A DNA stretch of 24,390 nt. It comes from Clostridia bacterium (lineage in GTDB: Bacteria > Bacillota > Clostridia > Christensenellales > Aristaeellaceae). The stretch covers positions 1-24,390 of the forward strand of contig JAKSQG010000005.1 of NCBI GenBank assembly GCA_024404275.1. The letters are read 5' to 3'. Below, piece by piece: positions 1 to 24,390 of this stretch (the stretch's first letter is position 1; every line of letters begins with the position of its first letter). The position numbers and the translations under genes were made by a program. Under the pieces are notes generated by a model. It made no database searches and had not been told where the DNA came from. It saw nothing but the letters and a program-made list of their open reading frames with translations.

Positions 1-1533
1 GACCTGAACTCCGCTGCCAACGGCTTGTTCCGTGTATTGCCGTCCGGCAGACTGCGTCCGCTCATCCGTTTGATTGCGTTTTTGGGTTACCGTAGCTGGA
101 AACCGGTGGAGCTGTTGGAGTATACCTGCGATATCACTGACAGTGAGAAGGAGCTGTCCGCTCAATTGAACAGCCTCAATACGGAGGGCTGGCTGGTGTG
201 GAATGAGGATGGTTACCTGATGCACCCCGTGATTGCGTAGAATCTGCGTCAGGAGCCGGGCGGCTGCGACGAGTATCCGAAGCTGTGGCAGAAGCTGAAC
301 AAAATGTTTGCGGAGCCCATGACTGAAAAAACGCAGGGCTTTGTACCGCAGGCCGAAAACCTGCTGCGCTATACCGCCAATCTGGACCGGACAGCGCTTT
401 CACTGATCATCGGGCTTGAACAAAGCGTCATGACCCGTCCCACGGGCAGCATTACTGATGATCTGCCCAAATTGCACCGCAAATGGCTTGATACCCATGA
501 GCATACGGCGGTGGATGAGATCGATTATCATATCATGCAGCTGCTGTGGGCGATACTGAGATCGCGCCCCGGGCAGTATCGTGACTCCGTGGAAATGCTG
601 AGCGCCTGTGAAGAAAAGGATCTTTTGAGCACTGCCAACTATTCGCTGCTGCTCAACGTACTGGAGGTTGGCGGCAAATATGCCGAACCGGAACAGCTGA
701 ACCTGCTGTTTGAACGGCTGCGGCCCGATGATGACAAACGGATGGTGGATTACTGCAACTTTCTTGGCGGCAAGCTGCGTGCTGTGGATCAGAATCAGCA
801 GCGTGCGGCGGAGGTGCTTCGCCAAGGGCGGGAGCTGATTGAAAAGCTCTGCCTGACGGGAACAGTGCAGGAGGCCGCCAACGATTCCCGCATGGCGTAT
901 ACGCTGGCGGATATGGGTCTGTGGTCGGAAACACTGCCGTTGATGCGCCGTGTGATGGACAACATGAAAACACGCGGTTATGCCGATGATTCGCCTACGG
1001 TGACCCCCATCCGCAGCACCTATTATTTTTTCCTCAGCAAGTGCGGGGAGTATCAGCAGACGCGAAAATAGCTTGGCGATCATCTGAAGCATGTGCTTGA
1101 GAAGGATGAACGTTTTGAAGCCGTCGTGAGGGCGTATACCTCCTATCTGCGCCTTCTGATGGATCACGATGAGTTTGAAGAGGGCGAAAAGATCGCCAGG
1201 AACCTGATTGCATACTGCCGCGGCTGCGTGAATTCAGACCCCGAATTGGAGGGCGAGGCCTTTCTGGCGGGCGGCCGGGTGCTGCTGCTGTGCAGTAAAC
1301 CGGCGGAAGCCATTGGCTTGCTGGCAGAGGCACAAGGCCTGTTTGAAAATGTGGACGAGGGCTCGGTTTTGCAATGCCGGTTCTACACTTCCCGCTGCCT
1401 TGCGGCACTGGGACATACTGAAAAGGCCTCTGCCATGCTGAAAAATGTGCACAATATGCTTCTGAAGCGGCACGAAGGCAACCGGAAACTGCTGACGCTG
1501 GTGGAGCAGGCAGAGGCTGAGGAAACAAAATAA
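1..1533 (+). CDS. 3' part of a large STAND/NTPase-like signalling protein: winged-helix-like segment followed by TPR-like helical repeats. The 5' end lies off-window. Read through two in-frame TAG codons (238-240, 1069-1071).
   Basis: Track ORFs 25-240 (open to position 1), 304-1071 and 1093-1533 are all in frame 1 and separated only by single TAG codons. There is no Shine-Dalgarno before ATG 304 or GTG 1093. Helical-repeat-like sequence continues across both junctions (..GWLVWNEDGYLMHPVIA[TAG]NLRQEP..; ..CGEYQQTRK[TAG]LGDHLKHVLEKDERF..). Final stop TAA 1531-1533. Under the standard code this is three fragments. Confidence 0.55.
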
Positions 1534-2757: not shown

Positions 2758-3237
2758 GTGATGCTTGTGTCAGGAAAAAACGCCATGGACAAACCGAATA
2801 AACGTTTTTCGACCGATGAACTGACCAATGGTATTTTGCGTACGCGGGATTTTAAACGCTATCTGAACAGCCATGCCGAAGCTCTGCAGGAGGTTTCACT
2901 GCGGGAATATCTGGAGCAGCTCCTCCGTGAAAAGGGCTTGAAACGAGCGGAGGTGATTCAGCGTGCCAATCTGGACCGGGTGTTTGGATATCAGATTTTT
3001 GATGGACGCAAATCGCCCTCGCGGGACAAGGTACTGCAGCTGGCCATCGGGTTTGGCTTGAATTATTCATAGACCTGCGAACTTTTGCGCATCGCCCGAA
3101 AAACCGCCCTCTATGCCCGGCTCAAACGGGAGGCCATTCTGATTTACGCCATCGGGCATGGGCTTTCCGTGATGGAAACCCAGTATCTGCTGATGGAAGC
3201 CGAATTGACTCCTTTGGGACAGGAGAAGGACAGATGA
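2758..3237 (+). CDS. XRE-like helix-turn-helix transcriptional regulator, read through in-frame TAG 3070-3072
   Basis: Track ORF 2758-3072 ends at TAG inside the conserved C-terminal segment of this HTH family. The same frame continues TCELLRIARKTALYARLKREAILIYAIGHGLSVMETQYLLMEAELTPLG to TGA 3235-3237, which overlaps the kinase ATG 3234-3236 (ATGA). The start is uncertain (GTG 2758, ATG 2761 or ATG 2785). Confidence 0.72.
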
Positions 3238-4127: not shown

Positions 4128-4945
4128 TTGAGCAGGCGATCAGAAAAATGCTCGGCACCGGCAGCGAGTCCGTCCTGAACCGGGAGGAACTGGAAAAGGT
4201 CGAGGGGCTTTATATTTTCGGCGATGTGATCGCCATGAATGAAGATGAGTTTTATGAAGCGGCCAATCGTTGGTACGCCGGCGGCAGCAGGCTATATGGC
4301 ACAATCACGCGGCTGGATGATGTTGTACTTCTGCCAAATCTTCGACGGGTGATGATTGCCGCCAATGAGGTTGAGAATATCTCGCCTTTGTCTGCACTGA
4401 CCAAATTGGAAAAGGTGGAATTCAAGCATAACCGCATCAGCGACATTACGCCGCTGAAGGGGCTGAAGATGCTTTGTTCTGTGGGCTTGAACGACAACCC
4501 CGTGACCGATGTGACGGTGCTGCTGACGCTGCCGGAACTTCGTTATCTGGATTTGTGTGACGCCTCTGCTTATGATGCGGTTGGGTTGGCAGGGCTTCAT
4601 GATATGGAGCTGCTGGATATTTCCAATCGTACCGACAGCGGACGGTACCTTGGCACAAAACATATCCGTGATCTGAGGATGGGATGGACAAATCTGGACA
4701 GCCTGGACGCGCTTGCCGGGGTGATGGGGCTTGAAAGATTGAGCATTGAGCATACACGCATTACCAGTTTGGAAGGCATTGAACGCCATGCGGGACTGAC
4801 CTATCTGCGTATGTCCGGTTGTGAGGTGAAGAATCTGACGCCGCTTCTATTGCTTCCTGAACTGAAGACACTGGTCATTGACGGTGCCCGCCGGGGGGAT
4901 GTGGAAGTGCTGGGTGAAGTGCGTTTTGAGGTGCTGTATGAATGA
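4124..4945 (+). CDS. Leucine-rich-repeat (internalin-like) protein; possibly the detached ectodomain of the preceding kinase
   Basis: About 22-residue LRRs (..NRISDITPLKGLKMLCSVGLNDNPVTDVTVLLTLPELRYLDL..). ATG 4124 overlaps the kinase TGA (ATGA). The frame is open from 3938 and looks coding from ~4040. Stop TGA 4943-4945. Confidence 0.75.
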   Translation: MIEQAIRKMLGTGSESVLNREELEKVEGLYIFGDVIAMNEDEFYEAANRWYAGGSRLYGTITRLDDVVLLPNLRRVMIAANEVENISPLSALTKLEKVEFKHNRISDITPLKGLKMLCSVGLNDNPVTDVTVLLTLPELRYLDLCDASAYDAVGLAGLHDMELLDISNRTDSGRYLGTKHIRDLRMGWTNLDSLDALAGVMGLERLSIEHTRITSLEGIERHAGLTYLRMSGCEVKNLTPLLLLPELKTLVIDGARRGDVEVLGEVRFEVLYE

Positions 4946-6234: not shown

Positions 6235-6271
6235 AAAAACAGCAGGTCTTATCACAATGACCTGCTGTTTT
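6235..6271. terminator. Bidirectional intrinsic terminator between convergent genes
   Basis: AAAACAGCAGGTC (6236-6248) pairs perfectly with GACCTGCTGTTTT (6259-6271) across a 10-nt loop. A-run and T-run flanks serve both strands. Confidence 0.8.
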
Positions 6272-6295
6272 AATGCTTTTTGGTTCATTCGGCCA

Positions 6296-7714
6296 TCAAA
6301 GCGGCGGAATAGCGTCCAAAATGGTTTTTTCCAACGCTTCGCGGCCGTAGCTATCCACGGCAGCCTTGTTCTTTTCACCGTGGGTCAGGTTGCCGGCGCC
6401 GCCGATGCAGCCGCTGATACAGGCCATGCCTTCGATAAAGTTAGCGTCCAAGGCATTATGGGCTTTTTTGATAAGCGCCATGCGACACTCCTCAATACCG
6501 TCACAGACGCAGGCCTTCAGCTGGAAGTCATCCAGATGCTGTTCCTTCAGTCCTTCGGCAACGGCATCGCTCAGACCGCCGCTGCGGGCAAAAATGCGGC
6601 CGAAGTAGCTGGCGTTATTCAGCACATCCTCGGGCAGGGTGGTAATATCGATATCACGGCTGTCGAGCAGTGCCTGCAATTCTTCAAAGGTGATGACGGC
6701 ATCCACATAGGGTTTGACGTCTTCCAACTGTGCTTCGGCCTTTTTCGCGGTGCAGGGACCGATAAATACGATCTTGGCGGTTTCATCATGGTCCTTGATA
6801 TATTTGGCAAGGGTAGCCATGGGCGAGAGATTGTGAGAAATATAGGGCACCAGCGCCGGGAAGGCGGTTTTGACATAGCGGACAAAGGCCGGGCAGCAGG
6901 AGGAGGTCAGGAAGCCTTTTTCCACCAATTCCTTGGATTCCGCCTGGGCAACCATATCAGCGCCCAAAGCGGCTTCGATGACGGTATGGAAGCCCAGCTC
7001 CTTGATGCCGCTGATGACCTGTCCCAGCTTGGCATAATTGAGCTGGCTGCCGATGGCAGGAGCTACCAGGGCATAGACTTTGAATACGCTGTTGTCCTGG
7101 CTTTTTTTCAGCATATCGATCACATTGATGATAAAGGAACGATCCGTAATGGCACCAAAGGGGCACTGATACACACAGGCACCGCACTGAATGCATTTTT
7201 CATCATCGATCTTGGCAGCATTGTCATCATTGATGGAAATGGCCTTGATCTTGCAGGCGTTCTGGCAGGGACGCTTGCGGTTGACGATGGCGCTGTACGG
7301 ACACACCTTGGCGCACTGACCGCATTCCACACACTTGGATTTGTCAATGTGCGCTTCGTGATTGTGGTCAAAGGAGATAGCGCCGCGCTTGCAGACATCC
7401 TCGCAACGGTGGGCCAGACAGCCGCGGCAGGAATCGGTCACCTGATAGCCGACGGCAGGGCAGTCATCACAGGCGATATCAATGACTTGAATGATATTGT
7501 CTCCATTACCGCCTCCCATCGCCAGCTTGACGCGTTCAGCCAGGATGGCGCGTTCCTTGTACACGCAGCAGCGCATGGTGGGGACTTTGCCCGGCACGAT
7601 CATTTTGGGAATGTCCAGCACGTTTTCCAGCAGTGTGTCATTCCATGCCTGACGGGCGACTTCGCGCAGCACCTTGTATTTCAGATATTGTACCTTGGTA
7701 TCAAATTTGCGCAT
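6296..7714 (-). CDS. [FeFe] hydrogenase homologue with ferredoxin-like 4Fe-4S domains (HfsD-like)
   Basis: H-cluster motifs TSSCCPAF, GPCTAKKAE and EGMACISGCIGGAG. Several CxxCxxCxxxCP ferredoxin motifs. AAGGAG RBS. Stop TGA. Confidence 0.85.
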   Translation of the reverse strand: MRKFDTKVQYLKYKVLREVARQAWNDTLLENVLDIPKMIVPGKVPTMRCCVYKERAILAERVKLAMGGGNGDNIIQVIDIACDDCPAVGYQVTDSCRGCLAHRCEDVCKRGAISFDHNHEAHIDKSKCVECGQCAKVCPYSAIVNRKRPCQNACKIKAISINDDNAAKIDDEKCIQCGACVYQCPFGAITDRSFIINVIDMLKKSQDNSVFKVYALVAPAIGSQLNYAKLGQVISGIKELGFHTVIEAALGADMVAQAESKELVEKGFLTSSCCPAFVRYVKTAFPALVPYISHNLSPMATLAKYIKDHDETAKIVFIGPCTAKKAEAQLEDVKPYVDAVITFEELQALLDSRDIDITTLPEDVLNNASYFGRIFARSGGLSDAVAEGLKEQHLDDFQLKACVCDGIEECRMALIKKAHNALDANFIEGMACISGCIGGAGNLTHGEKNKAAVDSYGREALEKTILDAIPPL

Positions 7715-7723
7715 GCGTTCTCC

Positions 7724-8893
7724 TTAAAAATAGCTTACTTTGATTCGTTTACCCATTTTTTTGAGGGCTTGGGACAATTCTTCCACCAAATTCATTTTGA
7801 TGTTGAAGTTGATGGGCAGGTTGGGGTTCTGATGCGCCGGGTTGACGGCTCTGCCTACATAGAAATTGATGTCGGTGGCTTCTTCAAAAAGCAGACGGCT
7901 GATGAGGCAGGCACCGTCCTTGCCGTTGCTCCAGGTCTCATAACACAGGTTATCGCCCGTGTAATCCTTGGCGTATTCCACCACACGGTTGATGGTGATC
8001 ACGCCTTCCGTTACCAGATCGACGCCCTCCAGATAGGCAATGGGCGGAATGTCGCTGTCAAAGTCCAAAGAAGCCCTCAGGGGCTTGTTCAGCCATTTGG
8101 CGGCGATGGAGGAGGTGGTGCCGCCGCAGACGATGTGCTTTCCTTCCTTGGAGAAGAACAGGCTCATCATGCGGTCACCGTCATCACGGTTGCTGGGCGG
8201 TCCGAAGAGCAGATTCATGGGCACGCGCTTGCGGACACGGACCACACAGGAGGTGGCATCATCCCCGGGCTCGCCGCCATACAGCTCATTGCATTTATCC
8301 ACCAACAGGGTGGAAAGGTTCTTGGCGGTATAGCCGCACAGATTCATGGCCTCCATGAAGGGGATGATATCTTCCCGCTTCCAGCCGAAGTTATAGGCAA
8401 TGCCGATGCCTGCGTGGGGGCAGCCGTCGCTCATGGCGATAAAAACATCGTCTTCCTGCAGCCGGATGAGGGAACGGAAGATCTGTTTGCCGCCGATGGT
8501 GCTCTCTGTGCGTGGATATTCATAGTTTTCACCGTTGCGCAGCATGATGACCTGCGGGTTATCATACTGGATCAGCTCTGCCGTCTGATTGCGGATCAGG
8601 CGGATGATGGTGAAGGTGGAATAGGCGACGCCGCGGATGGAGCAGACGGGCAGCGTGGCGGCAATGGTTTCCACGCATTCCTCGATGGAAAGCCCGGCAG
8701 CCAGCATGGTGGAAATGATCTTGCTGGTCAGGGTGGACAGAATGCTGGCTTTGACACCGCTGCCAAGCCCATCTGCCAGCACGATGACGGTGGAGCCGTC
8801 TTCCTGTTCCACAATTTCCACATGATCGCCGCAAAGCTGCTCGCCGGCGTGATTGATGCTTTTGTAGCCGATATCACACGTCAGGTCATTCAT
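7724..8893 (-). CDS. SpoIIE/PP2C-family protein phosphatase (HfsC-like)
   Basis: N-terminal GDHVEIVEQEDGSTVIVLADGLGSGVKASILS and ..AMSDGCPHAG.., DDATSCVVRV are PP2C/SpoIIE-type motifs. The start overlaps the hydS stop by 8 nt (ATGAATGA). Stop TAA. Confidence 0.85.
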   Translation of the reverse strand: MNDLTCDIGYKSINHAGEQLCGDHVEIVEQEDGSTVIVLADGLGSGVKASILSTLTSKIISTMLAAGLSIEECVETIAATLPVCSIRGVAYSTFTIIRLIRNQTAELIQYDNPQVIMLRNGENYEYPRTESTIGGKQIFRSLIRLQEDDVFIAMSDGCPHAGIGIAYNFGWKREDIIPFMEAMNLCGYTAKNLSTLLVDKCNELYGGEPGDDATSCVVRVRKRVPMNLLFGPPSNRDDGDRMMSLFFSKEGKHIVCGGTTSSIAAKWLNKPLRASLDFDSDIPPIAYLEGVDLVTEGVITINRVVEYAKDYTGDNLCYETWSNGKDGACLISRLLFEEATDINFYVGRAVNPAHQNPNLPINFNIKMNLVEELSQALKKMGKRIKVSYF

Positions 8894-10562
8894 TGTTGAT
8901 GGACTCCTTCAGCTTTGAGAGGGCAATCTTGGTTTCGGCGGCAGTTTCACCCAGCAGACTGGCAATTTCCTGCACGATACGCATCTGTTTGTCGACGACC
9001 TTGTCGGCTACTTCGACCGTCTGGCGCCGGATGTCTTCCTTCTGCTGACGGGCAGCTTCTTCCTCGCTGACGTCACGCATAATGCACAGCAGCATACGTC
9101 CGCCCTCAGCGGGAACGATGGTCTGCTCCACGGTACAGTTGTATTCCGCCAGATAGGTGCGCTCGTTAAAGATACCGCGGCCGGAGTTTTTTACCTTCAT
9201 GAAGGGGATGGGGTCCAGAATGCGGACAACCTGATCTCCCAGCACGGCACTTTCGGAGCGCAGATTCAGGATCTTGCGGGCAGCGGGGTTGATCTGCTGC
9301 ACTTCCAGCTGATCGTTGAGCATCAGGATGCCGTTGGGGCTGTTGCGGGCAATGGTATCGCTGACGTTTTCCGCTTTTTCCATCAGGTAAGGCAGGCACA
9401 TGGAGGGCTCCGCCTTGCCCTGATAAATGGCGATGGCTTTTTCACGGCAGGTATTGTAGCCGCAGGAGCCGCAGTTCAGCTCCTGAGAGGGTTTGAACTT
9501 GCCCATTTCACGCAGAATATCGCGGATCTCAAATTCAGTGGGCAGGGCGGCGCGCTGCTCGATGGGGGCAAAATGCTTGCGCAGCTCCTGTGCTTCGGGC
9601 TGATCGATCTCAAAGTCCTTATCACCGGCGTAACGGGCGACAGCCAGATAATCCTTCACCGGGCTGTGACCGTATTTTTCCATCACGGGACCGCCGGCAC
9701 AACTGCCCACGCAAGCGCTCATCTCGATAAAGCAGCGATGGATCTTGCCCTGCTCGATCTCCTTCAGTGCGGCGATGCAGTTTTCAATACCATCGAAAGC
9801 GATATAGGTATAGCCCGGGGCATCCTGTGCCATGGTTTTCAGTACGCCGCCGGTGGTGGGAAAGAAACGTGCCAGACTATGTTCATCCGGCTGCTTTTCC
9901 TGACGAAGTTCAACGCCTTCCTTTTTAAGCCAGTTGGTCAGCTCTTCAAAGGTCAGCACCGCGTCAACGATGCCCTCGTAGTGCTCCGCTTCATCCTTCT
10001 TTGCCACGCAGGGACCGACAAAGACGGTCTTGGCGCCGGGAATACGGCGCTTGATGTCCTCACAGTGCGCCTGCATGGGGGAAAGTACATCCGCCAGATA
10101 GGGCAGCACACGGGGGAAATGCTTCTGAATGAGCAGGTTGATGGAGTGGCAGCAGGAAGAGATGACGATGTCACGGTTTTCTTCCTGCAGAATGCGCTCG
10201 TATTCCCGCTTTACAAGCGTAGCGCCCAAAGCGGTCTCTTCCACATCGTGGAAGCCCAGCTTTTTGAGCGCTTCCCGCATGGCTTCAATGCCCACACCAT
10301 CATAGTTGGCAACAAAGGACGGCGCCAGAGAGACGACCACCGGGGCGCCGCTCTGAATGAGAACCTTTGCCTTTTCGGTCTGGTCCACGATCTCCTTGGC
10401 ATTCTGCGGGCAGACGACAAAGCAATGACCGCAGAGGATGCACTCATTGTCGATGATGTGAGCCTGGTTGCCGGAAAAACGGATGGATTTTACCGGGCAG
10501 TGACGGATGCACTTATAGCAGTTTTTGCAGTTGGATTTTTTTAAAGTCAGGCAGTTTGGCAT
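8886..10562 (-). CDS. hydS: Putative sensory [FeFe] hydrogenase with C-terminal Cys motif and PAS domain (HydS / HfsB-like)
   Basis: N-terminal 2x[4Fe-4S] ferredoxin motifs. H-cluster motifs ISSCCHS, GPCVAKKDE and EMSACVGSCAGGP. CGSCGYNTCx16C motif, then a PAS-like segment (NSPNGILMLNDQLEVQQINPAARKIL..). Stop TGA. Confidence 0.85.
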   Translation of the reverse strand: MPNCLTLKKSNCKNCYKCIRHCPVKSIRFSGNQAHIIDNECILCGHCFVVCPQNAKEIVDQTEKAKVLIQSGAPVVVSLAPSFVANYDGVGIEAMREALKKLGFHDVEETALGATLVKREYERILQEENRDIVISSCCHSINLLIQKHFPRVLPYLADVLSPMQAHCEDIKRRIPGAKTVFVGPCVAKKDEAEHYEGIVDAVLTFEELTNWLKKEGVELRQEKQPDEHSLARFFPTTGGVLKTMAQDAPGYTYIAFDGIENCIAALKEIEQGKIHRCFIEMSACVGSCAGGPVMEKYGHSPVKDYLAVARYAGDKDFEIDQPEAQELRKHFAPIEQRAALPTEFEIRDILREMGKFKPSQELNCGSCGYNTCREKAIAIYQGKAEPSMCLPYLMEKAENVSDTIARNSPNGILMLNDQLEVQQINPAARKILNLRSESAVLGDQVVRILDPIPFMKVKNSGRGIFNERTYLAEYNCTVEQTIVPAEGGRMLLCIMRDVSEEEAARQQKEDIRRQTVEVADKVVDKQMRIVQEIASLLGETAAETKIALSKLKESINNE

Positions 10563-10566
10563 GGCG

Positions 10567-10806
10567 TTACACCCTTGCTTTGATTACATTTTCGAAAAAG
10601 GTGGGAACAGTCTCGGGGGAAACGGAAAAGAATTCACCGTCTACCGTGACGCAAACGCCCTGCTGGCATTTGCCCATGCAGAATGTGCCGCCCAGCTCGA
10701 TCTTGTCACTGAGGTTTTCCTTCGCAATCAGCGCCTGAAGCTGCTCCACCACGGGACGAGAGCCTTTGATGTGGCAGGAAGAACCGATACAAACCGTAAC
10801 CTTCAT
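10567..10806 (-). CDS. Small thioredoxin-like [2Fe-2S] ferredoxin (HfsA-like)
   Basis: 79 aa with four Cys in VCIGSSCH ... FCMGKC. GGAG RBS 9 nt upstream of the ATG. Stop TAA 4 nt before the hydS ATG. Confidence 0.75.
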   Translation of the reverse strand: MKVTVCIGSSCHIKGSRPVVEQLQALIAKENLSDKIELGGTFCMGKCQQGVCVTVDGEFFSVSPETVPTFFENVIKARV

Positions 10807-10832
10807 CTTTTTTGTCTCCTTTTTGCGATGTT

Positions 10833-10877
10833 TTATAAAAACAGGAAAAGGAGGGGTGATGGTTCCCTCCGTTTTCC
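10833..10877 (-). terminator. Intrinsic terminator/attenuator hairpin between the APH-fold kinase gene and the hfsA-like gene
   Basis: Minus strand: GGAAAA(C)GGAGGG-AACCATCAC-CCCTCCTTTTCC followed by TGTTTTTAT. It lies only ~35 nt upstream of the hfsA-like ATG. Confidence 0.7.
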
Positions 10878-10908
10878 TTCATCATACGAGTCAGAAAATC
10901 AATGATTT

Positions 10909-11658
10909 TTAATGATATTCCACCACGTTGGCCCAGGACAGCAGGAATTCTCTTTCCTTTTCCTTGCCCTTGACGGACTGGCTGGCGGCGACGATGGGCA
11001 TCCACTTCTGCACATACTGCAGGGGGGTGCCGCTCTTTTCACAGAACAGCTTCAGGTATTCCTTGGCGCCGTCGATATCGCCGTTCAGCCAGAACAGCAG
11101 ATAGGTACGGGCAACATCGGCGGAGGCGTTGCCCTGCGTGACATGGCTCCAGTCGATCACGTAAGGGGTGCCGTCCTCGCTGATGATCACGTTGGAGGGC
11201 CAGAAATCGCCGTGACACACTTTGCTGTGATTGGGCATACCCTCCAGACGGGCGTGAAGATCAAAACGGGTGGTGGCATCCAGGTCAGCCTGGCTGATCT
11301 TGCGCTCCATCTTGTCCCTGAGGCGGTTCAGATGGGAACAGCTCTTGCTCTGGATCTCCAGCTGCAGATCCACAAACTGATTGAGGTATTTGTCCTTGTT
11401 GTCCGGGTCTTCTTTCATCAGCTGGGACAGGGTTTTGCCCTTGATGAACTCAGAGATGATGGCCCATTTTCCATCGATCATGGTGACACCCAGGAGCTTG
11501 GGAATGTGCAGCCCGGTCTCTTCAATGCGCGCCTGGTTGAGCGCTTCGTTGAGGATGTCGGCTTTGGAGTGACTTTCATCGAACACCTTGATGCAGCGGT
11601 CACCGTCACGGTAAATGGTTTTGTCGTTGCGTACGGCAATAACGCGATCCAGATTCAT
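10909..11658 (-). CDS. Aminoglycoside-phosphotransferase/choline-kinase-fold (APH-like) kinase
   Basis: CHGDFWPSNVII and YVIDWSHV (HxDxxxxN / DxS Brenner-type motifs). GAAGGAGG lies 8 nt before ATG 11658. The track ORF starts 7 codons earlier. Stop TAA. Confidence 0.8.
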   Translation of the reverse strand: MNLDRVIAVRNDKTIYRDGDRCIKVFDESHSKADILNEALNQARIEETGLHIPKLLGVTMIDGKWAIISEFIKGKTLSQLMKEDPDNKDKYLNQFVDLQLEIQSKSCSHLNRLRDKMERKISQADLDATTRFDLHARLEGMPNHSKVCHGDFWPSNVIISEDGTPYVIDWSHVTQGNASADVARTYLLFWLNGDIDGAKEYLKLFCEKSGTPLQYVQKWMPIVAASQSVKGKEKEREFLLSWANVVEYH

Positions 11659-11675
11659 CTTTTTTGTCCTCCTTC

Positions 11676-14378
11676 TCACAGCTTACGGCCGGGACGATAG
11701 GCTTTTTTCACCGCGTCGTTTCCCGGCTCGGCAATGTTAGCCTCAGTGGGCTTGGCCATCTCGGTAAAGTGCTTGCCGCCGTAATAGGCGTTCAGGTACA
11801 TCTGCTTGATCTCGCTCATCAGCGGATAGCGGGGATTGGCACCGGTGCACTGATCGTCAAAGGCCTGCTCCACCATGTCATCCAGTCTGGTCAGGAAATC
11901 CTGCTCATCGGGAACATAATCCTTGATAGTGGGCTTGATCCCCACATAAGCCTTCAGATTGTTGATCATCTGAATCAGGGCTTCCAGCTTTTCATGGTCG
12001 GTGCCCTGGTTAATTCCCAGCGCCTCGGCCACCTGCGCGTAGCGGCGCAAGGTATGGGGATGATCGTACTGAGGGAAGGTGCCCATCTTGGCAGGAGCTT
12101 CGCAGGCGTTGAAGCGCAGCACTTCTTCGATCATCAGAGCGTTGGCTACACCGTGAGGAATGTGATGGAAAGCACCCAGCTTGTGCGCCATGGAGTGGCA
12201 GACACCCAGGAAGGCGTTGGCAAAGGCCATGCCGGCCATGGTGGCTGCATTAGCCATTTTCTCACGAGCTTCCACATCTGTCAAGCCATTGTCATAGGCT
12301 TGAGGCAGATATTCAAAAATGGTTTGCAAAGCTTTGATGGCAAGGCCATCTGTATAGTCCGTCGCCATCATGGAGGCATACGCTTCAAGGGCGTGGGTGA
12401 CGGCGTCGATGCCGCTGGCGGCGGTCAGACCCTTGGGAGCGGTCATATGGAAATCGGTATCGATGATCGCCATGTTGGGCAGCAGAGCATAATCGGCAAG
12501 GGGATATTTGACACCGCTCTTTTCGTCGGTGATGACGGCAAAGGGCGTTACCTCACTGCCGGTACCGGCGGAGGTGGGAATGGCGACAAAATAGGCCTTT
12601 TCGCCCATCTTGGGGAAGGTATAAACACGCTTGCGGATATCCATGAAGCGCATGGCCATGTCCTGGAAATCCACTTCGGGATGCTCGTACAGCACCCACA
12701 TGATTTTGCCGGCGTCCATGGCGCTGCCGCCGCCCAGAGCGATGATCACATCGGGCTGGAACAGACGCATCTGTTCCGCGCCGGCCTTGGCGCAAGCCAG
12801 GGTGGGATCGGGCGCGACGTCAAAGAAGGTTGCGTGCTGAATGCCCAGTTCATCCAGCTTCTTGGTGATGGGGGCGGTGTTTCCGTTGTGATAAAGGAAA
12901 GAGTCGGTGACGATAAAGGCCTTCTTTTTGCCCATAACTTGCTTCAGTTCGTCCAGCGCCACCGGCAGGCAGCCCTTTTTGATATACACCTTCTCCGGCG
13001 TACGGAACCACAGCATGTTTTCTCTCCTTTCAGCCACGGTTTTGATGTTCAGCAGGTGCTTGACGCCCACGTTTTCGGATACGGAGTTGCCGCCCCAGCT
13101 GCCGCAGCCGAGGGTGAGCGAGGGGGCCATCTTGAAGTTATACAGATCGCCGATACCGCCCTGCGAGGAGGGGGTGTTGACCACGATACGGCAAGTCTTC
13201 ATCTTGGCGGCAAAGGCATCCAGCACATCGGGCTTCTTCTGCGTATCGATGTACAGGGAGGCAGTGTGACCGTAGCCGCCATCGGCAATCAGACGATCGG
13301 CTTTGGCGAAGGCATCATCCAGATCCCTGGCACGGTACATGGCCAGCACGGGGCTCAGCTTTTCATGGGCAAACTCTTCACTGAGGTCCACAGATTCCAC
13401 TTCACCGATGAGCACCTTGGTGCCTTCGGGAATGGTGACACCGGCCAGCGCGGCGATCTTACAGGCGCTCTGACCGACGATCTTGGCGTTCAGGGCACCG
13501 TTGATCAGGATGGTGTGGCGCACCTTGTCCAGATCGGCACCGGTCAGGAACCAGCAGCCTCTTTGAGCAAATTCGGCTTTCACCTGATCGTAAATGCTGT
13601 CCAGCACGATCACGCTCTGCTCGGAAGCGCAGATCATGCCGTTATCAAAGGTCTTGGAATGGATGATGGAGTTGACAGCCAGCACAACATTGGCACTGTC
13701 ATCGATGACAGCAGGCACGTTGCCCGCACCGACGCCCAGTGCCGGCTTGCCGCTGGAATAAGCCGCCTTGACCATGCCGGGACCGCCGGTGGCCAGAATG
13801 ATATCGGCTTCGCGCATGACCATGTTGGTCATTTCCAGAGAAGGGACATCGATCCAGCCGATGATGCCTTCAGGAGCGCCGGCTTTGACCGCAGCATCCA
13901 GTACCACCTTGGCAGCGGCAATGGTGGCCTTCTTGGCGCGGGGATGGGGGCTGAAAATGATGCCGTTGCGGGTCTTGAGGCAGATCAAAGCCTTGAAGAT
14001 GGCGGTAGAGGTCGGGTTGGTCGTGGGGATGACGGCGGCGACCACGCCAATGGGCTCAGCCAGCTTTTTGATGCCGTAGGCTTTGTCCTCCTCGATGACG
14101 CCGCAGGTCTTGGTATCGCGGTAAGCGTTGTAAATATATTCACTGGCATAGTGATTTTTGATGACTTTGTCTTCCACTACGCCCATGCCGGTTTCTTCAA
14201 CGGCCAGCTTGGCCAGAGAAATACGGGCCTGATTGGCAGCGGTGGCAGCGGCCAGGAAAATGCGGTCCACCTGCTCCTGAGTATAGGTCGCATAGATGCG
14301 CTGCGCTTCGCGTACGCGCTTAATGGCGGCTTCCAGCGCTTCGGTGTTGTCCACCAGATCAAATGCTTTGGTTTCCAT
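11676..14378 (-). CDS. adhE: Bifunctional acetaldehyde-CoA / alcohol dehydrogenase
   Basis: 900 aa. ALDH domain with catalytic FDNGMICASEQ. Fe-ADH domain with GGGSAMDAGK and His-rich metal motifs. AGGAGG lies 6 nt before ATG 14378 (the track ORF begins 38 codons upstream). Stop TGA. Confidence 0.97.
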   Translation of the reverse strand: METKAFDLVDNTEALEAAIKRVREAQRIYATYTQEQVDRIFLAAATAANQARISLAKLAVEETGMGVVEDKVIKNHYASEYIYNAYRDTKTCGVIEEDKAYGIKKLAEPIGVVAAVIPTTNPTSTAIFKALICLKTRNGIIFSPHPRAKKATIAAAKVVLDAAVKAGAPEGIIGWIDVPSLEMTNMVMREADIILATGGPGMVKAAYSSGKPALGVGAGNVPAVIDDSANVVLAVNSIIHSKTFDNGMICASEQSVIVLDSIYDQVKAEFAQRGCWFLTGADLDKVRHTILINGALNAKIVGQSACKIAALAGVTIPEGTKVLIGEVESVDLSEEFAHEKLSPVLAMYRARDLDDAFAKADRLIADGGYGHTASLYIDTQKKPDVLDAFAAKMKTCRIVVNTPSSQGGIGDLYNFKMAPSLTLGCGSWGGNSVSENVGVKHLLNIKTVAERRENMLWFRTPEKVYIKKGCLPVALDELKQVMGKKKAFIVTDSFLYHNGNTAPITKKLDELGIQHATFFDVAPDPTLACAKAGAEQMRLFQPDVIIALGGGSAMDAGKIMWVLYEHPEVDFQDMAMRFMDIRKRVYTFPKMGEKAYFVAIPTSAGTGSEVTPFAVITDEKSGVKYPLADYALLPNMAIIDTDFHMTAPKGLTAASGIDAVTHALEAYASMMATDYTDGLAIKALQTIFEYLPQAYDNGLTDVEAREKMANAATMAGMAFANAFLGVCHSMAHKLGAFHHIPHGVANALMIEEVLRFNACEAPAKMGTFPQYDHPHTLRRYAQVAEALGINQGTDHEKLEALIQMINNLKAYVGIKPTIKDYVPDEQDFLTRLDDMVEQAFDDQCTGANPRYPLMSEIKQMYLNAYYGGKHFTEMAKPTEANIAEPGNDAVKKAYRPGRKL

Positions 14379-17420: not shown

Positions 17421-18590
17421 GTGAACTATCGGGTTACGGATGGGGTGCTGACGCTGTTTCCGCAAGGCCGGATCGACTCCGGCAATGCAGACAGCACGGA
17501 AAAGGAAATGCGGGCTGTGTGCGTGGCAAACGCCGTCCCGGGACTCATACTTGACCTTGAAAAACTGGCGTATATCTCCAGCGCCGGGCTTCGGGTGGTG
17601 CTGCGGCTGCGCAAGGACTATCCTGAAATGAAAATGATCAATGCTTCCGCCGAAGTATATGACATTCTGGATATGACCGGTTTTACCGAAATGATCCCGG
17701 TGAGCAAGGCGTATCGCCGCCTGAGCATTGAGGGATGCGAGATGATCGGTCAGGGGGCAAACGGCACGGTATACCGTCTGGATGGGGAGACCGTGATCAA
17801 GGTGTACCGCCATGCCGACAGCTTGCCGGAAATCCGGAGAGAAAGAGAACTTGCCCGCAAGGCATTCGTGGCAGGTCTGCCGACTGCTATCCCCTATGAT
17901 GTGGTACGTGTCGGGGAGGGCTATGGCTCGGTGTTTGAAATGCTGAATGCCGGTTCAGTGGCCGATATCCTCAAAAAGGAGCCATAGCGACTGCCGGAGT
18001 GCGCGCACATGATGACCACACTGCTGAAGAAGATCCATGCTACTGAGTTAAAGCCCGGGGAATTTCCCGATGCAAGGCAGACAGCCCTGGACTGGGCGGA
18101 TTTTTTGCAGGACCATCTTCCGCGTGAGCAGTATCAGAAGCTGCGTGGACTGATCGAGGCAGTGCCGCGGGATACGCATGTGCTGCATGGGGATTGTCAT
18201 GTGAAGAATGTGATGATCCAGAATGGGGAGACGCTGCTGATTGACATGGACACCCTGTGTCAGGGGCATCCGGTGTTTGAGTTTGCGGCGATCTATATCG
18301 ATTATCAGGGATACGGCGAACTGAATTCCGAAGATGTCACGACATTTTTCGGCATCCCTCATGAAATCTGCGCGGAATTGATGCGTTTGATCATTGTAGA
18401 GTATTTTGAACTGAAAGAGGAAGCCGCCTACCGCGCAATACTGGACAAGGCGCGCGTAATCGGCTATGCACGGCTGATGCGCCGTACCATCCGCCGGATG
18501 GGGCATACGGAACAAGGAAAGCAGCTGGCTGCCTACTACGCAGAGCGGCTGACGGAGCTGCTGGACTGTGTGGATTCACTGACATTTTAA
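17421..18590 (+). CDS. STAS (anti-sigma-antagonist-like) domain fused to an APH/protein-kinase-fold domain, read through in-frame TAG 17985-17987
   Basis: Track ORFs 17421-17987 and 18009-18590 share a frame. STAS motif LAYISSAGLRVVL. Kinase N-lobe IGQGANGTVYRL..VIKVY lies before the TAG. Catalytic HGDCHVKNVMI and LIDMD lie after it. GTG start with GGGAAGGGAG upstream. Stop TAA. Confidence 0.7.
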
Positions 18591-18607: not shown

Positions 18608-18904
18608 ATGAACATTACCAAGAATCAGAACGGCGAACTGCTTGAAATGGCGCTGGAAGGACGACTGGATACGGTGACCTCTCCCAAGCTTGAAAAGGAA
18701 CTGAGCACTTCTCTGAACGGCATCAAGGAATTGGTGTTCGATTTTGCCAAGCTTGAGTATGTTTCCTCCGCCGGTCTGCGTGTACTGCTGACGGCGCAGA
18801 AGGTGATGAATACACAGGGCAGCATGAAGGTGTGCCATGTGAATGAAAACATCATGGAAGTATTTGAAATTACCGGCTTTGCGGATGTGCTGACCATTGA
18901 ATAA
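18608..18904 (+). CDS. STAS-domain protein (RsbV/SpoIIAA-like anti-sigma factor antagonist)
   Basis: 98 aa with LEYVSSAGLRVLL (phosphorylatable-Ser motif). GAAGGA upstream of the ATG. Stop TAA. Confidence 0.9.
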   Translation: MNITKNQNGELLEMALEGRLDTVTSPKLEKELSTSLNGIKELVFDFAKLEYVSSAGLRVLLTAQKVMNTQGSMKVCHVNENIMEVFEITGFADVLTIE

Positions 18905-18946: not shown

Positions 18947-19762
18947 ATGACGACGGAAGAACTGCTGAAAACGGTGGAAGAGATTCATGTGCCTTTGGAG
19001 GACACCTACCTGAATGTCATCCGCTTTGGACGTGGAAAAAAAGTGCTTGCGTTGCTTTCGGGTGTCAGCCTGTGCGGTCTGGAGGGAGCGGGAGCAGGCG
19101 TTGCGGCTGCTTACGCCGATTTTGCGGAGGAGTATACGGTTTATCTGTTCGACCGCAAAAAGCTGCTGCCAAAGGGCTATCAGGTGGCGGACATGGCGGA
19201 GGATGTTTATCGGGTGCTCTGCACCTTTGGCATTCAGGAAGCCGACGTGTACGGCGTCTCCCAGGGCGGCATGATGGGACTCAGCCTGGCACTGGCGCAC
19301 CCCGGTCTGGTGCGGAAGCTGGCACTGTGTTCTACCCAGGCTCGGGCGGGAAGCGTCATGCGTTAGACCGTTGCCGAGTGGCTGCAATATGCCAGACGAG
19401 GGGACACAGCAGGCATTCAGCGTTGCTTTGCGGAAAAAGTCTACTCACCGGCTTACCGTGAAAAGTACGCATCGGCTTTCCGGGCTATGGAGCAGCAGGG
19501 ATCGGCTGAAGACTGCGCCCGTTTTGTGGTATAGGCGGAGGCATGCCTCACTTTTTGCGTTTATGAAGAGCTGGACCGGATCCATTGTCCCGCGCTGGTG
19601 CTGGCGGATGTGAATGACCGTGTGATCGACGTGTCCTCTGCCCGGGAGCTGGCGCATGGGTTGAACTGCCCGCTGCAGTTGTATGATCAATACAGCCACG
19701 CGGTGTTTGATGAAGCGCCCGAAGTAAAACAGCGGGTGCTGAACTTCCTGCGGCAGGAATGA
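18947..19762 (+). CDS. Alpha/beta-fold hydrolase (RsbQ-like size and context), read through two in-frame TAG codons (19364-19366, 19532-19534)
   Basis: Track ORF 18947-19366 carries the nucleophile elbow YGVSQGG. The same frame continues through both TAGs to ..CPALVLADVNDRVI..LYDQYSHAVFDEAPE..FLRQE and TGA 19760-19762. That supplies the Asp and His of a catalytic triad. The merged protein is 271 aa. Confidence 0.75.
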
Positions 19763-19826: not shown

Positions 19827-21617
19827 ATGAAGCTGCCGCTGCAACGGCATCCAAAGGAATCCTACAGTACCATGACGCGGGCAGTACTGTGGCAGAATGA
19901 AATAGAAGCCAACCGACTGACCACGGTTTTTATGTGCATCTGTTCGGCGGTCATGGCACTCAGTATGCTGCTGACGGCTGTTGGTATTTTTACGGAGAAT
20001 GCGCAGACAGTGTATACCACGGGCATCGCGACGATCGTGTGGCATATGCTGCCGTGCCTGGTGAGCTTTCGATACAAATACGCAAAGCCGTGGCTGAAGA
20101 ACCTGCTGCTGGCGGGGTTGATTCTGGGACAGGCACGATTGGACTGCGGGCTGGGTTTCAATACGGCACTTTCCATACTGATTCCGGTTGTGTTCAGTAC
20201 GCGGTATTACTCCCGAAAGTTTACGCTTTCCGTGGCTGCCATTACGACCGTGGTGTTTTCTGTCACGACCTATCTGGGCGCTGCGACGGGCTTTACCCCG
20301 GTGGATAAAAATATTCTTCTGGAAGCGTCCCGGTATGCGCATGATGTCATGATGACCAGCTTTCTTCCCAAGTGGTTTTTATTTGCGGTCATCTCGGCTG
20401 TGTGCGCGGAGGTTGCCCACTGGGGGCGTGCTATGGTTGAAAAGCAGGCCGTCATCAGTCAGGAGCATAGCCGTGTGGAAACGGAGCTGCATACGGCAAC
20501 CCAGATTCAGTTGAAATCGCTTCCCGATGTGAAAACGCTGTGCGAAGGACATGAGGCTCCCTTTGAACTGGCGACCAGCATCCTTCCGGCCAAAGAGGTC
20601 GGCGGCGATTTTTACGATTTCTTCTATGTTGACCCAACGCACCTGGCATTGGTCATTGCAGATGTTTCCGGCAAAGGCGTGCCGGCAGCGCTGTTTATGA
20701 TGGTTTCTAAAATCCTGCTGGATAACAGCGCTTCCGCAGGGCGAACGCCCGGCAAGGTGCTGACGATGGTCAACCATCAGCTTTGCGAAAAAAACATCAT
20801 TGACATGTTTGTGACAGTGTGGCTGGGCATCATCGACTTGACCACCGGCGAAATTGTCAGTGCCAACGCGGGACATGAGAACCCCATCATTTGTCGTAAG
20901 GACGGCACTGTGGAAGTCATCCGTACCAAGCACGGCATGGTGCTGGGCGGCATGGAAGGCATGCGTTACCGGGATGAAACCCTTCAGCTGCACCCCGGCG
21001 ATACGCTGTTTGTGTATACAGACGGCATCCCCGAAGCGCACAACAGCGCCGCGCAGATGTATGGCATGGAACGACTGGTTTCGGTGCTGACAGGCAAAAC
21101 ACAGATGAATGCGCAGGCCCTTGTGGACTTGGTGAAGCAGGATGTGAATGCTTTTGCCGGTTAGGCACCGCCGTTTGACGACTCGACCATGCTGGCGATT
21201 CGCCTGAATGGCCTTGTGAAGCGGGAGGGACTGCAGATTCGTCCCGACACGGCATCGGTCAGCACCGTGCAGGAGTATGTTGCGCAGGCAATGGAGCAAG
21301 CCGACATTCCCATGAAGCAGGCCACCAAGGTCAACATCGCATTGGATGAAATGTACAGCAACATTGTGCATTACAGCGGAGCGGGCTGGGCAGAGGTGAT
21401 CTGCCGGGCTGACAAAAGCGGGGTCACGCTCATCTTGCGGGATAACGGCGTGCCGTTCGATCCGCTGCAGAATGCCGCCCCTGACATCAATCAGAGCGCG
21501 GAAGAGCGCCGCATCGGCGGCCTTGGCGTGTTTATGACCCGCAAGATGATGGACGAGATGTGCTACCGCTATGCGGACGGATGCAATGAACTGACTATGA
21601 CGCTGAAGATCAGCTGA
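19827..21617 (+). CDS. Membrane-anchored PP2C (RsbU/SpoIIE-type) phosphatase fused to an RsbW/SpoIIAB-like HATPase domain, read through in-frame TAG 21162-21164
   Basis: Track ORFs 19818-21164 and 21189-21617 share a frame. N-terminal multi-TM region. PP2C motifs EVGGDFYDFF, ADVSGKGVPAALFM and VYTDGIPEA lie before the TAG; [TAG]APPFDDSTMLAIRL follows it. Then HATPase N-box DEMYSNIV, DNGVPFDP and GGLGVFM. AGGAG lies 9 nt before ATG 19827. Stop TGA. Confidence 0.75.
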
Positions 21618-23162: not shown

Positions 23163-23298
23163 GAAGAAAGTGAAAAACGTGGAAAAAAATAAAAAAACGT
23201 TAGCTTTTTGGTACACTTTTGGAGCGGAATTCAAGGGGGCATGTGCTATAATCATGCCGATGAATCGAAATTCATTTTCGAAAAGGAGATGTTCTACG

Positions 23299-23883
23299 AT
23301 GAAAAAAACGCTCTCTGTCCTGTTGGTTATGATTCTGTTGGTTTCCGCGATTCCCTTCAGCGGCCTCGCCATGGAAAACCCTTTCGGTGAAGCCTGGGTC
23401 AAAACTGCCAATGGCAAAACCGTCAATGCCCGCCGCACCCCCACCACGAATGCGGACAACATTATCTATGAGCTGCCCTACGGCTTCAAGGTGATGATCA
23501 TCGGCTATGAAAAGAATGCCCAGTGGGCGCTGTGCGATATCGGTAATGGCGTGAACGCGTACATCATGACCCGCTATCTGTCCCGCACCAATCCCGGCAA
23601 AAAGCCCACCCCCACCGTGACTCCCCAGCCGACCGCCAAGCCCGAAACGATCGACTACAGCTCCTTCAGGTATGTGACTCCCTACACCGCGTATGTACGT
23701 CCCAGCAGCCCCACCGGTTTTGTCAATCTGCGTTGGGCGCCCAGCAAGTCCGTTCAGGTCATTGCCATCTATTATCAGGGCAGCCCGCTGACGGTCATCG
23801 CTCAGGGCCACAACTGGTGTCAGGTGCGTGACGAAGTCAACGGCTTTACCGGATTTATGATGAGCTCTTTCCTGACCCGCTGA
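23299..23883 (+). CDS. Secreted protein with two bacterial SH3-like domains joined by a Pro/Thr linker
   Basis: GGAG lies 10 nt before ATG 23299 (the track ORF starts at 23161). Signal peptide MKKTLSVLLVMILLVSAIPFSGLA. Two repeats of the type ..V(N)AR..P....VI..L..G..V.. ..W..V. Linker NPGKKPTPTVTPQPTAKPE. Stop TGA. Confidence 0.85.
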   Translation: MKKTLSVLLVMILLVSAIPFSGLAMENPFGEAWVKTANGKTVNARRTPTTNADNIIYELPYGFKVMIIGYEKNAQWALCDIGNGVNAYIMTRYLSRTNPGKKPTPTVTPQPTAKPETIDYSSFRYVTPYTAYVRPSSPTGFVNLRWAPSKSVQVIAIYYQGSPLTVIAQGHNWCQVRDEVNGFTGFMMSSFLTR

Positions 23884-23913
23884 AACTGACTGTTTATCAA
23901 GGAGGAACAAACA

Positions 23914-24390
23914 ATGAAAAAGCTGTTTGCTGTTGTGCTGGCACTGATGCTGGCGATGACCGCTTCCCTTTCCCTGGCAGAAGGCACTGTTGTGCAGATG
24001 GGTGCGAACTATGATATCACCATCGATGTGCCCGCCGGCTATACGATGAACAAAATTCTCTCCGGCAGTCTGGTCATGGCGGATTTTGAGCCTGCCGATG
24101 CCGCTGCCGCAAAGTACACCCTGGTGATCGAGTACAGCGAGGAGTTTGGCGATTACATCCTCAACGACCTGACCGCCGAGGAAACGGCCCAGATGAAGGA
24201 AATGCTGACGGCGGACTTTGCCGATGCAGTTGTTACTTTCCCCACGACCAAGGCCGGTACCAAGCTGATCCAGATCGATGAGCAGGGCTCCGAAAGCGAA
24301 TATGGCTTCGTCCTGACCATCTATCATGGCTATTTTGTCCAGATCACGCTGACCAAGGCGAACGGCGTACAGCTGACCGCCGAAGAGTAT
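23914..24390 (+). CDS. Secreted protein of unknown function; 3' end off-window
   Basis: AAGGAGG RBS at ~23899-23905. ATG 23914. Signal peptide MKKLFAVVLALMLAMTASLSLA. The frame is open to the window end, so it is absent from the ORF track (no stop). Confidence 0.8.
   Translation, partial: MKKLFAVVLALMLAMTASLSLAEGTVVQMGANYDITIDVPAGYTMNKILSGSLVMADFEPADAAAAKYTLVIEYSEEFGDYILNDLTAEETAQMKEMLTADFADAVVTFPTTKAGTKLIQIDEQGSESEYGFVLTIYHGYFVQITLTKANGVQLTAEEY

Follow-up and report, generated by a model that had tools for sequence, protein, structure and literature searches.

In-frame TAG codons in an alpha/beta-hydrolase gene and its neighbours suggest that UAG is a sense codon, most probably for glutamate, in a lineage of gut Clostridia

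The contig JAKSQG010000005.1 of the metagenome-assembled genome (MAG) GCA_024404275.1, a Clostridia bacterium of the Aristaeellaceae, was analysed over a stretch of 24,390 nucleotides (nt), referred to below as the window, which carries an alpha/beta-hydrolase gene whose frame is crossed by two TAG codons. Comparison of this gene and its neighbours with related sequences makes it very probable that the hydrolase is functional and that UAG is a sense codon throughout the lineage, most probably for glutamate, with TAA and TGA as sole terminators. This reading is based on in-frame TAGs with continuous homology, on purifying selection downstream of them, on the lack of TAG terminators and on the predominance of glutamate among the residues found in their place in relatives. 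The lineage, which is uncultured, would comprise the MAG of the window, a sister species (GCA_045599485.1) and probably a more distant contig, L082. With rather less confidence, we favour the wider proposal that a clade of gut Clostridia has fully reassigned UAG to glutamate and lives without termination of the release factor 1 (RF1) type at UAG, which would be the first reassignment of a stop codon other than UGA in a bacterial chromosome.

Single-frame translation from the ATG at 18947 revealed the two TAGs as the sole interruptions of the hydrolase frame (Table 1). The original prediction had placed both TAGs, the terminal TGA at 19760 and the total length of 271 amino acids (aa) in this way, and the strings that it quoted (YGVSQGG, IHCPALVLADVNDRVI and YSHAVFDEAPEVKQRVLNFLRQE) are all found in the frame. 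The match to the Pfam family Abhydrolase_1 (E 2.3e-13; 50.8 bits vs. a cut-off of 25.8) extends over residues 76-258 and so includes both TAG positions. A search of 5.8 billion proteins identified 311 homologues, many of which are uninterrupted and about 271 aa long, with identities of up to 95% (P0001). These homologues align with the hydrolase end to end across TAG 1 and TAG 2, and the similarity to intact hydrolases persists through the C-terminal half, the point on which an alignment had been proposed as a check. Judged from these alignments, chance cannot explain the homology across both TAGs. Ser105 and Asp224 are invariant in all hydrolase alignments (22 sequences in A1, 40 in A2), while His251 is invariant among the 22 and at least 90% conserved among the 40. 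The elbow G103-V-S105-Q-G107, which is invariant in 40 homologues, has the G-x-S-x-G form expected of the alpha/beta-hydrolase fold. As had been argued, the acid and the histidine of the triad, which follow strands beta7 and beta8, are regained only if both TAGs are read through. An AlphaFold2 model was made of the intact, 95%-identical proxy P0001 rather than of the window sequence, and shows a complete alpha/beta-hydrolase fold (predicted local distance difference test 97.2, predicted template-modelling score 0.94) whose nearest structures are generic esterases and enol-lactonases (3om8, 7dq9, 4q3l and 2xua; template-modelling scores 0.81-0.85). As both TAGs fall in cap helices and Asp224 and His251 lie beyond them, a product of 139 aa would, according to this model, be devoid of the cap and of two-thirds of the triad.

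Table 1. Positions in the window of the hydrolase gene, its catalytic residues and TAG codons, and of other features discussed in the text
Feature	Position	Strand	Remarks
Alpha/beta-hydrolase gene	18947..19762	+	271 codons, two in-frame TAGs; terminator TGA 19760-19762
TAG 1, hydrolase codon 140	19364..19366	+	Cap-domain helix 136-150 (AlphaFold2 model of proxy P0001)
TAG 2, hydrolase codon 196	19532..19534	+	Cap-domain helix 187-202 (AlphaFold2 model of proxy P0001)
Nucleophile Ser105 (TCC), G-V-S-Q-G-G elbow	19259..19261	+	Invariant column; aligned with Ser of 2xua
Catalytic acid Asp224 (GAC)	19616..19618	+	3' of both TAGs; invariant column; after strand 216-221
Catalytic His251 (CAC)	19697..19699	+	3' of both TAGs; after strand 243-246
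STAS and APH-type kinase fusion	17421..18590	+	389 codons; in-frame TAG 17985-17987 splits the Pfam APH match
Stand-alone STAS (RsbV-like) gene	18608..18904	+	Pfam STAS; ends with TAA; conserved 5' of the hydrolase in L082, L083 and L002
Membrane PP2C (SpoIIE) phosphatase-HATPase_c_2 kinase fusion	19827..21617	+	596 codons; in-frame TAG 21162-21164 directly 5' of the conserved 'FDDSTML'
Helix-turn-helix (HTH; XRE-like) gene	2785..3237	+	In-frame TAG 3070-3072, common to the sister; dN/dS 0.05
STAND NTPase (NB-ARC and TPR)	1..1533	+	C-terminal 510 codons of about 948 aa; in-frame TAGs 238-240 and 1069-1071
[FeFe]-hydrogenase	6296-7714	-	472 aa; as in relatives L085-L088
SpoIIE phosphatase	7724-8893	-	389 aa; as in relatives L085-L088
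LysR terminator TAA	14592..14594	-	TAA also in the sister; orthologous terminator TAG in three standard-code relatives

The two TAG positions carry acidic or amide residues in close relatives. Codon 140 is GAG (Glu) in the sister species and in the loci L082 and L083 and Gln in P0001, while codon 196 is Glu in conspecific strains, in P0001 and in the sister species (GAG in the latter). The substitution of Gln or Glu that had been suggested for modelling is therefore apt, as one or the other is found in relatives at both positions. The sister orthologue is 90% identical and has no internal stops. Position 196 is Leu in about 95% of family members, L082 and L083 among them, and Glu or TAG is found in the subclade of the window, P0001 and the sister. 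The change from Leu to Glu in the cap helix consequently came before the change from GAG to TAG. With regard to strains, an assembly of 98.7% nt identity (L089; 18 mismatches) keeps TAG 1, Logan contigs from SRR17543910 that are 98.7-99.9% identical to the window have the same TAGs, and the same truncated hydrolase open reading frame (ORF) of 139 aa was found in at least five further Logan/ENA assemblies. TAG1-bearing strains have Glu at position 196, where they read 'RFVVEAEACL' (P0246, P0249). Similarly, at the position of the STAND TAG 1069, conspecific strains and the sister read 'QQTRKELGDHLK', again with Glu. Alternation between TAG and Glu within the species was observed at hydrolase position 196 and at STAND site C. 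The peptides predicted to span the hydrolase TAGs are ETVAEWLQYAR for TAG 1 read as Glu, or QTVAEWLQYAR if it is read as Gln, and FVVEAEACLTFCVYEELDR.

The original prediction was confined to the hydrolase; its read-through stands, the restriction to a single gene does not, as in-frame TAGs were also identified in at least four further window genes and in relatives, where TAG is never a terminator. Two long ORFs were dropped as shadows before counting (see below), and the corrected gene models of the window (21 genes, 7,413 codons) contain seven in-frame TAGs in five genes, a frequency of 0.94 per 1000 codons, and no in-frame TAA or TGA, while ten of the 21 genes terminate in TAA, 11 in TGA and none in TAG. 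Most TAG sites lie in regulatory genes (STAND, HTH, STAS-kinase and PP2C), and none was found in AdhE or the catalytic hydrogenase. In the sister, L082 and L083, the PP2C-HATPase_c_2 gene is intact and encodes a single fusion protein of 596-622 aa. In the STAS-APH fusion, the codon of TAG 17985 (codon 189) is GAT in the sister, mostly Glu in outgroups and Glu in slightly more divergent strains. The TGA of the HTH gene overlaps the start codon of a kinase gene (ATGA) only if TAG 3070 is read through. A third TAG of the STAND gene lies upstream in contig L001, as an eighth in-frame TAG beyond the seven of the window, and all three sites are covered by single-chain STAND homologues of 893-1005 aa. 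As the STAND gene continues on a second contig of the same MAG (19,597 nt; MCQ2453358/9), the two contigs are adjacent in the genome. In the annotation of the Prokaryotic Genome Annotation Pipeline (PGAP), the hydrolase is listed as the 139-aa protein MCQ2453097.1, and the TAG-bearing genes are split into separately named proteins (MCQ2453076-MCQ2453100 for the contig).

The sister contig JAZRWA010000035.1 (L002 and L172 in the locus set) is collinear with nearly the whole window at about 88% nt identity and has nine in-frame TAGs: STAND codons 154, 228, 518 and 543, codon 67 of the gene g1559, HTH codon 96, SpoIIE codon 31, codon 224 of a HydS-like gene and STAS-APH codon 137. Three of these are common to both species (STAND 228, STAND 518 and HTH 96), the other six being located elsewhere. 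All seven gene calls of L172 that end in TAG continue in frame for 54-794 codons. In L082 (61% GC; hydrolase identity 63%), which is probably a member of the clade, two TAG junctions were found that L013 and L083 encode as uninterrupted proteins, and no gene was seen to terminate in TAG. A stop census of all ORFs over 80 loci proved too noisy owing to shadow ORFs and was replaced by a homology-spanning screen of these loci, in which convincing TAG junctions were found only in the window, L002 and L082. In-frame TAGs with homology on both sides, the pattern by which a reassigned codon is recognized, were identified at 16 distinct sites in 10 gene families from the three lineages.

The usage of terminators points in the same direction. 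None of 77 genes in the clade loci ends in TAG vs. four of 58 in the relatives L085-L087 (Fisher p = 0.03), which share the AdhE-hydrogenase cluster and whose AdhE is 83-89% identical. The four TAG terminators in these relatives are followed by short downstream extensions. The LysR gene next to AdhE terminates in TAG in all three (L085 7521-7523, L086 9170-9172 and L087 9791-9793). Compared with the TAA of the clade at this position, this pattern is a direct footprint of TAG terminators having been purged.

Several explanations other than a sense codon were considered for the interruptions. Gene decay, in which the hydrolase and its neighbours would be pseudogenes created by nonsense mutations, is extremely unlikely. 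The PGAP records, in which the pieces figure as separate short proteins, one frameshifted gene in the window (Pkinase-LRR) and the presence of a second TAG after a first, which decay would permit, speak for it. Random nonsense mutations under the given codon usage would however yield TAG in 49-55% of cases, whereas the premature stops are TAG in 19 of 19 instances across the three lineages; for 12 of 12, the probability is already about 2-8e-4. The TAG-bearing genes show neither frameshifts nor in-frame TAA or TGA, and the TAGs persist across strains and species, while no gene of the clade loci ends in TAG. Furthermore, ratios of nonsynonymous to synonymous substitutions (dN/dS, omega) between the window species and the sister are 0.10 upstream of the hydrolase TAGs and 0.19 and 0.07 in the two segments that follow, 0.12 before and 0.13 after the TAG of PP2C-HATPase, and 0.10, 0.01 and 0.21 in the segments of STAS-APH. 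The STAND gene has an omega of 0.068, and SpoIIE one of 0.010 despite a TAG at codon 31 of the sister copy. The values 3' of TAGs (0.01-0.21) are the same as those upstream and those of intact neighbours, so that purifying selection continues beyond the TAGs. The view that the hydrolase gene is intact, already held in the original prediction, is thus borne out by homology over its full length, by selection and by the retention of TAG 1 in strains. Assembly or sequencing error was rejected, as Logan, ENA and NCBI assemblies independently contain the same TAGs, one of them from a strain that diverges by 1.3%. Site-specific programmed read-through, or an element resembling a pyrrolysine insertion sequence (PYLIS), was likewise rejected, as no stable structure is common to the 100-nt segments that follow the seven window TAGs (z from -2.2 to +2.2), the seven sites share no nucleotide context, and the window contains no match to an Rfam family. 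A phage or mobile-element origin is contradicted by the cellular gene content (AdhE, [FeFe]-hydrogenases, PBP/VanZ and LysR) and by synteny with standard-code bacteria.

The identity of the inserted amino acid was examined at the sites that carry a TAG in one of the sister species but not in the other. At these 11 sites, the partner codons are GAG (four), GAA (three), CAG or CAA (two), GAT (one) and AAG (one), corresponding to seven Glu, two Gln, one Asp and one Lys. In a test calibrated on 8,171 aligned codon pairs of the same genes in the window species and the sister, Glu was retained at 74% of the ordinary Glu codons at which the two species differ, which matches the 7/11 at TAG sites. The empirical log-likelihood for the 11 sites is best for Glu, followed by Gln (-11 nats), Asp and Lys (about -16 each), and a BLOSUM column model of 12 sites, in which distant homologues are included, also ranks Glu best (Gln -7.6 nats, Lys -21). 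In distant homologues, Glu or Asp occupies the TAG positions of the motif MHPVIA[E], of STAS-APH (137 and 189) and of STAND (228 and 518), and the conserved motif MHPVIA[E] has its TAG in both species. A genome-wide reassignment of UAG to glutamine instead of glutamate is unlikely, though it has the greatest probability among the alternatives. A change of the anticodon of tRNA-Gln from CUG to CUA requires one base change, as in E. coli supE and in phage genetic code 15, and is mechanistically the shortest route. Gln is furthermore the partner at HydS-like codon 224 and g1559 codon 67 of the sister and is present at hydrolase 140 in P0001, in the comparison of the L082 lipase-YhhN gene with L083 and in that of the HTH site with L048; in P0260/61, the stop after aa 236 aligns with a Gln of the window. 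What speaks for glutamate instead is the excess of Glu partners, the penalties of 11 and 7.6 nats for Gln, the conservation of Glu or Asp in distant homologues at STAS-APH 137 and 189 and STAND 228 and 518, and the fact that TAG alternates with Glu in both cases where a clear alternation was seen within the species (hydrolase 196 and STAND site C). Somewhat less probable still is an ambiguous reading, in which RF1 is lost or weakened and UAG is decoded into mixed products, either by near-cognate tRNAs for Glu, Gln and Lys (NAG codons) or by a tRNA-Gln-derived CUA tRNA that a non-discriminating GluRS charges with Glu and that is amidated only in part. The partner residues are exactly the NAG set of E, Q and K plus D, the TAG sites are rare with a fast turnover and are concentrated in probably weakly expressed regulatory genes, being absent from AdhE and hydrogenase, and in engineered E. 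coli without RF1, UAG is reportedly resolved by near-cognate suppression (PMC6207430). The NAG pattern is however predicted by mutational proximity as well, three TAGs are kept between the species where the sequence is constrained, including one within a conserved Glu motif, and up to four TAGs occur in a single gene of 948 aa with an omega of 0.07, where inefficient decoding would be costly. Pyrrolysine (Pyl), inserted with the help of a pylTSBCD cassette elsewhere in the genome, is a very improbable reading. It is the only natural sense decoding of UAG known in bacteria, and as it is not modelled in code screens, a Pyl lineage could have been overlooked. Against it, the TAG-containing genes are unrelated regulators and include no methylamine methyltransferase, the partners are acidic or amide residues with Lys only once (Lys as a proxy scores -16 to -21 nats), TAG replaces the conserved Glu of MHPVIAE, and no PYLIS-like structure is common downstream of the TAGs. 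The lack of pyl genes in about 100 kb of clade sequence is weak evidence in the same direction.

A number of observations weigh against the reading of UAG as glutamate, or against its full extent. Only three of 14 TAG sites are shared by the sister species (synonymous divergence dS about 0.4) vs. 72% of ordinary Glu codons that are identical, which on sequence grounds indicates that TAGs are gained and lost unusually fast and do not behave as fully neutral synonyms. Rare TAGs with a fast turnover fit recent, lineage-specific gains or mildly disfavoured decoding. Gln partners at two of the 11 sister-pair sites, together with P0001 at hydrolase 140, L083 and L048, leave room for Gln or mixed decoding, and the assignment of the amino acid is drawn from a small sample of 11-16 sites. 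Scans for tRNAs identified none with a CUA anticodon in the window or the clade loci L001, L002, L082, L083 and L172, and the prfA gene for RF1 lies outside the sequences covered. The terminator statistic is modest alone (p = 0.03), being derived from about 100 kb of clade sequence, so that TAG terminators may exist elsewhere, and all sequences are MAGs or metagenome contigs. Two large screens for genetic codes (PMC8629427; 10.64898/2026.04.02.715157) report no such code, which may have been missed or may have a weaker signal genome-wide than in these loci. Finally, the Pkinase-LRR gene, a single ORF of 570 aa in the sister (L172 12918-14630), is split in the window near 4043 by a 1-nt deletion that puts its Ser/Thr kinase and LRR parts in two frames (genes 3234-4127 and 4124-4945). 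The frameshift is either genuine or due to faulty assembly, and it is unrelated to TAG.

If UAG is read as glutamate, ribosomes would translate through codons 140 and 196 to yield a 271-aa alpha/beta hydrolase with the triad Ser105-Asp224-His251, and the same read-through would apply to the STAS-kinase, the PP2C-kinase fusion, the HTH regulator and the STAND NTPase. By analogy with known stop-codon reassignments, a tRNA(CUA) charged with Glu would be expected. In reassignments of UGA, release factor 2 (RF2) is lost and a tRNA(UCA) appears (PMC13462651); by the same analogy, RF1 would be lost or disabled here and RF2 left for UAA and UGA. A possible route is that TAG terminators, which are already rare in relatives (about 7%), were purged, and that near-synonymous changes from GAG to TAG then accumulated.

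The window, the sister, L082 and L083 share the conserved gene order STAS / hydrolase / SpoIIE-HATPase_c_2, and a PP2C neighbour was found at only seven of 80 loci of the hydrolase family. A scan of JGI metagenomes with the PP2C gene retrieved nothing closer than 50% identity, and two look-ups of exact proteins yielded no record. By analogy with characterized modules, the hydrolase is probably a small-molecule-dependent input to the phosphatase in a partner-switching module. The arrangement resembles RsbQ-RsbP of B. subtilis, in which the hydrolase gene lies directly 5' of the PP2C phosphatase gene, and likewise includes a STAS and anti-sigma-kinase partner-switching set; it differs in that the phosphatase is membrane-anchored and fused to its own kinase. 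The kinship with RsbQ that had been raised in the original prediction is consequently retained for the operon context only, with the PP2C phosphatase and STAS proteins adjoining, and is not reflected in the sequence or in the ranking of folds. RsbQ is absent from the 16 Protein Data Bank sequence hits and from the Foldseek top 50, in which KAI2 (4hry) ranks 39th. Membership in the RsbQ/KAI2/D14 subfamily is therefore not supported, as neither the sequence nor the structure neighbours are of the RsbQ type.

Elsewhere in the window, the region 6296-14378 on the minus strand contains genes for AdhE, an APH-type kinase, a 2Fe-2S protein, a PAS-domain sensory hydrogenase of the HydS-like type, the SpoIIE phosphatase and the [FeFe]-hydrogenase. 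This conserved cluster is common to standard-code relatives and from its sequence looks like a hydrogenase-based redox-sensing circuit adjoining alcohol dehydrogenase. An 880-aa ORF on the plus strand (6257-8899), which has no Pfam hit, was rejected as a gene and represents an antisense shadow of the minus-strand genes seen in the relatives L085-L088. A 351-aa ORF on the minus strand (23272-24327) is probably a shadow as well, as it overlaps an SH3 gene and shows a dN/dS of 1.58 vs. the sister. A gene on the plus strand, whose start (MKKLFAVVLALMLAMTASLSLA...) resembles a signal peptide, begins at about 23914 and runs off the end of the window (about 23914-24390). Outside the window, a partial gene at the left end of L001 (positions 1-837) aligns with about 6603-7160 of L172 at only 77% identity, and the aligned part of the sister contains four TAA/TGA stops. 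Genuine decay, paralogy or misalignment could each account for this. In the standard-code locus L084 (43% GC), hrcA (8089-9142) is called as two overlapping ORFs of 249 and 115 aa, which suggests a frameshift unrelated to the reading of TAG.

Recoding of stop codons is known from several systems that can be compared with the proposed one. Phages with genetic code 15 (TAG to Gln; crAss-like, Lak and other gut phages) likewise use amber as a sense codon in gut-microbiome DNA, and their genes also look fragmented under translation table 11; their decoding reportedly depends on suppressor tRNAs. In the present case, in contrast, the TAGs reside on a cellular chromosome with AdhE, hydrogenase, cell-wall and regulatory genes that is syntenic with standard-code relatives, TAG is absent from terminators throughout and not just in blocks of late genes, and Glu is favoured over Gln. 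The bacterial UGA codes (code 4, UGA to Trp; code 25, UGA to Gly) are similar in being lineage-wide changes from stop to sense; in the classical cases, the release factor for the codon is lost and a tRNA gains a new anticodon (PMC13462651). They differ in the codon and in the factor predicted to be lost (here RF1, not RF2), and the present genome is not AT-rich (54% GC) and not obviously reduced. Pyl decoding concerns the same codon in bacterial genes and is confined to methylamine methyltransferases and a few others, unlike the unrelated regulatory proteins and the Glu/Gln positions described here. In the nuclear codes of peritrich ciliates and Blastocrithidia (UAR to Glu), UAG also reportedly stands for Glu (PMC12153298), but these are eukaryotic codes in which UAA is reassigned too and eRF1 is altered, whereas UAA terminates 10 of 21 genes in the window. 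E. coli C321.deltaA and related RF1-free recoded strains are similar in that they are reported to have no UAG terminators and UAG free for an amino acid (PMC11903333; PMC6207430); they are synthetic, whereas the system proposed here would be natural, with a predicted loss of RF1.

All known stop reassignments in bacteria involve UGA (PMC8629427, a Codetta screen; 10.64898/2026.04.02.715157). The second of these, published in 2026 and covering about 2.7 million assemblies, has no TAG case among its results, and Pyl was not part of its model. A 2026 paper on UGA to Trp gives the same picture (PMC13462651). Full-text searches of the literature found no report of a natural bacterial reassignment of UAG other than Pyl; the cases of TAG recoding that they retrieved were confined to phages (code 15), eukaryotes, Pyl systems and engineered strains. 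Within the limits of the literature searched, a bacterial chromosome that reads UAG as Glu is unreported.

If confirmed, the findings would describe a new natural genetic code in a cellular lineage in which UAG stands for glutamate. RF1 function at UAG may then be dispensable in nature, and engineered RF1-free E. coli would have an equivalent in nature. With only three of 14 TAG sites shared, TAG terminators replaced by TAA and standard-code relatives nearby, it would offer a young and tractable case of code evolution, and as these relatives have about 75-80% nt identity, the transition could be reconstructed stepwise from the purge of terminators through the gain of a tRNA to the accumulation of GAG to TAG changes. 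Public records, in which the hydrolase, phosphatase-kinase, STAS-kinase and STAND genes are divided, would be misannotated. As TAG splits genes under table 11, gene catalogues, completeness estimates and functional profiles for the clade would be wrong. The change of code would also have a bearing on the compatibility of phages with such a host, to which those using code 15 would be pre-adapted, and on barriers to horizontal gene transfer.

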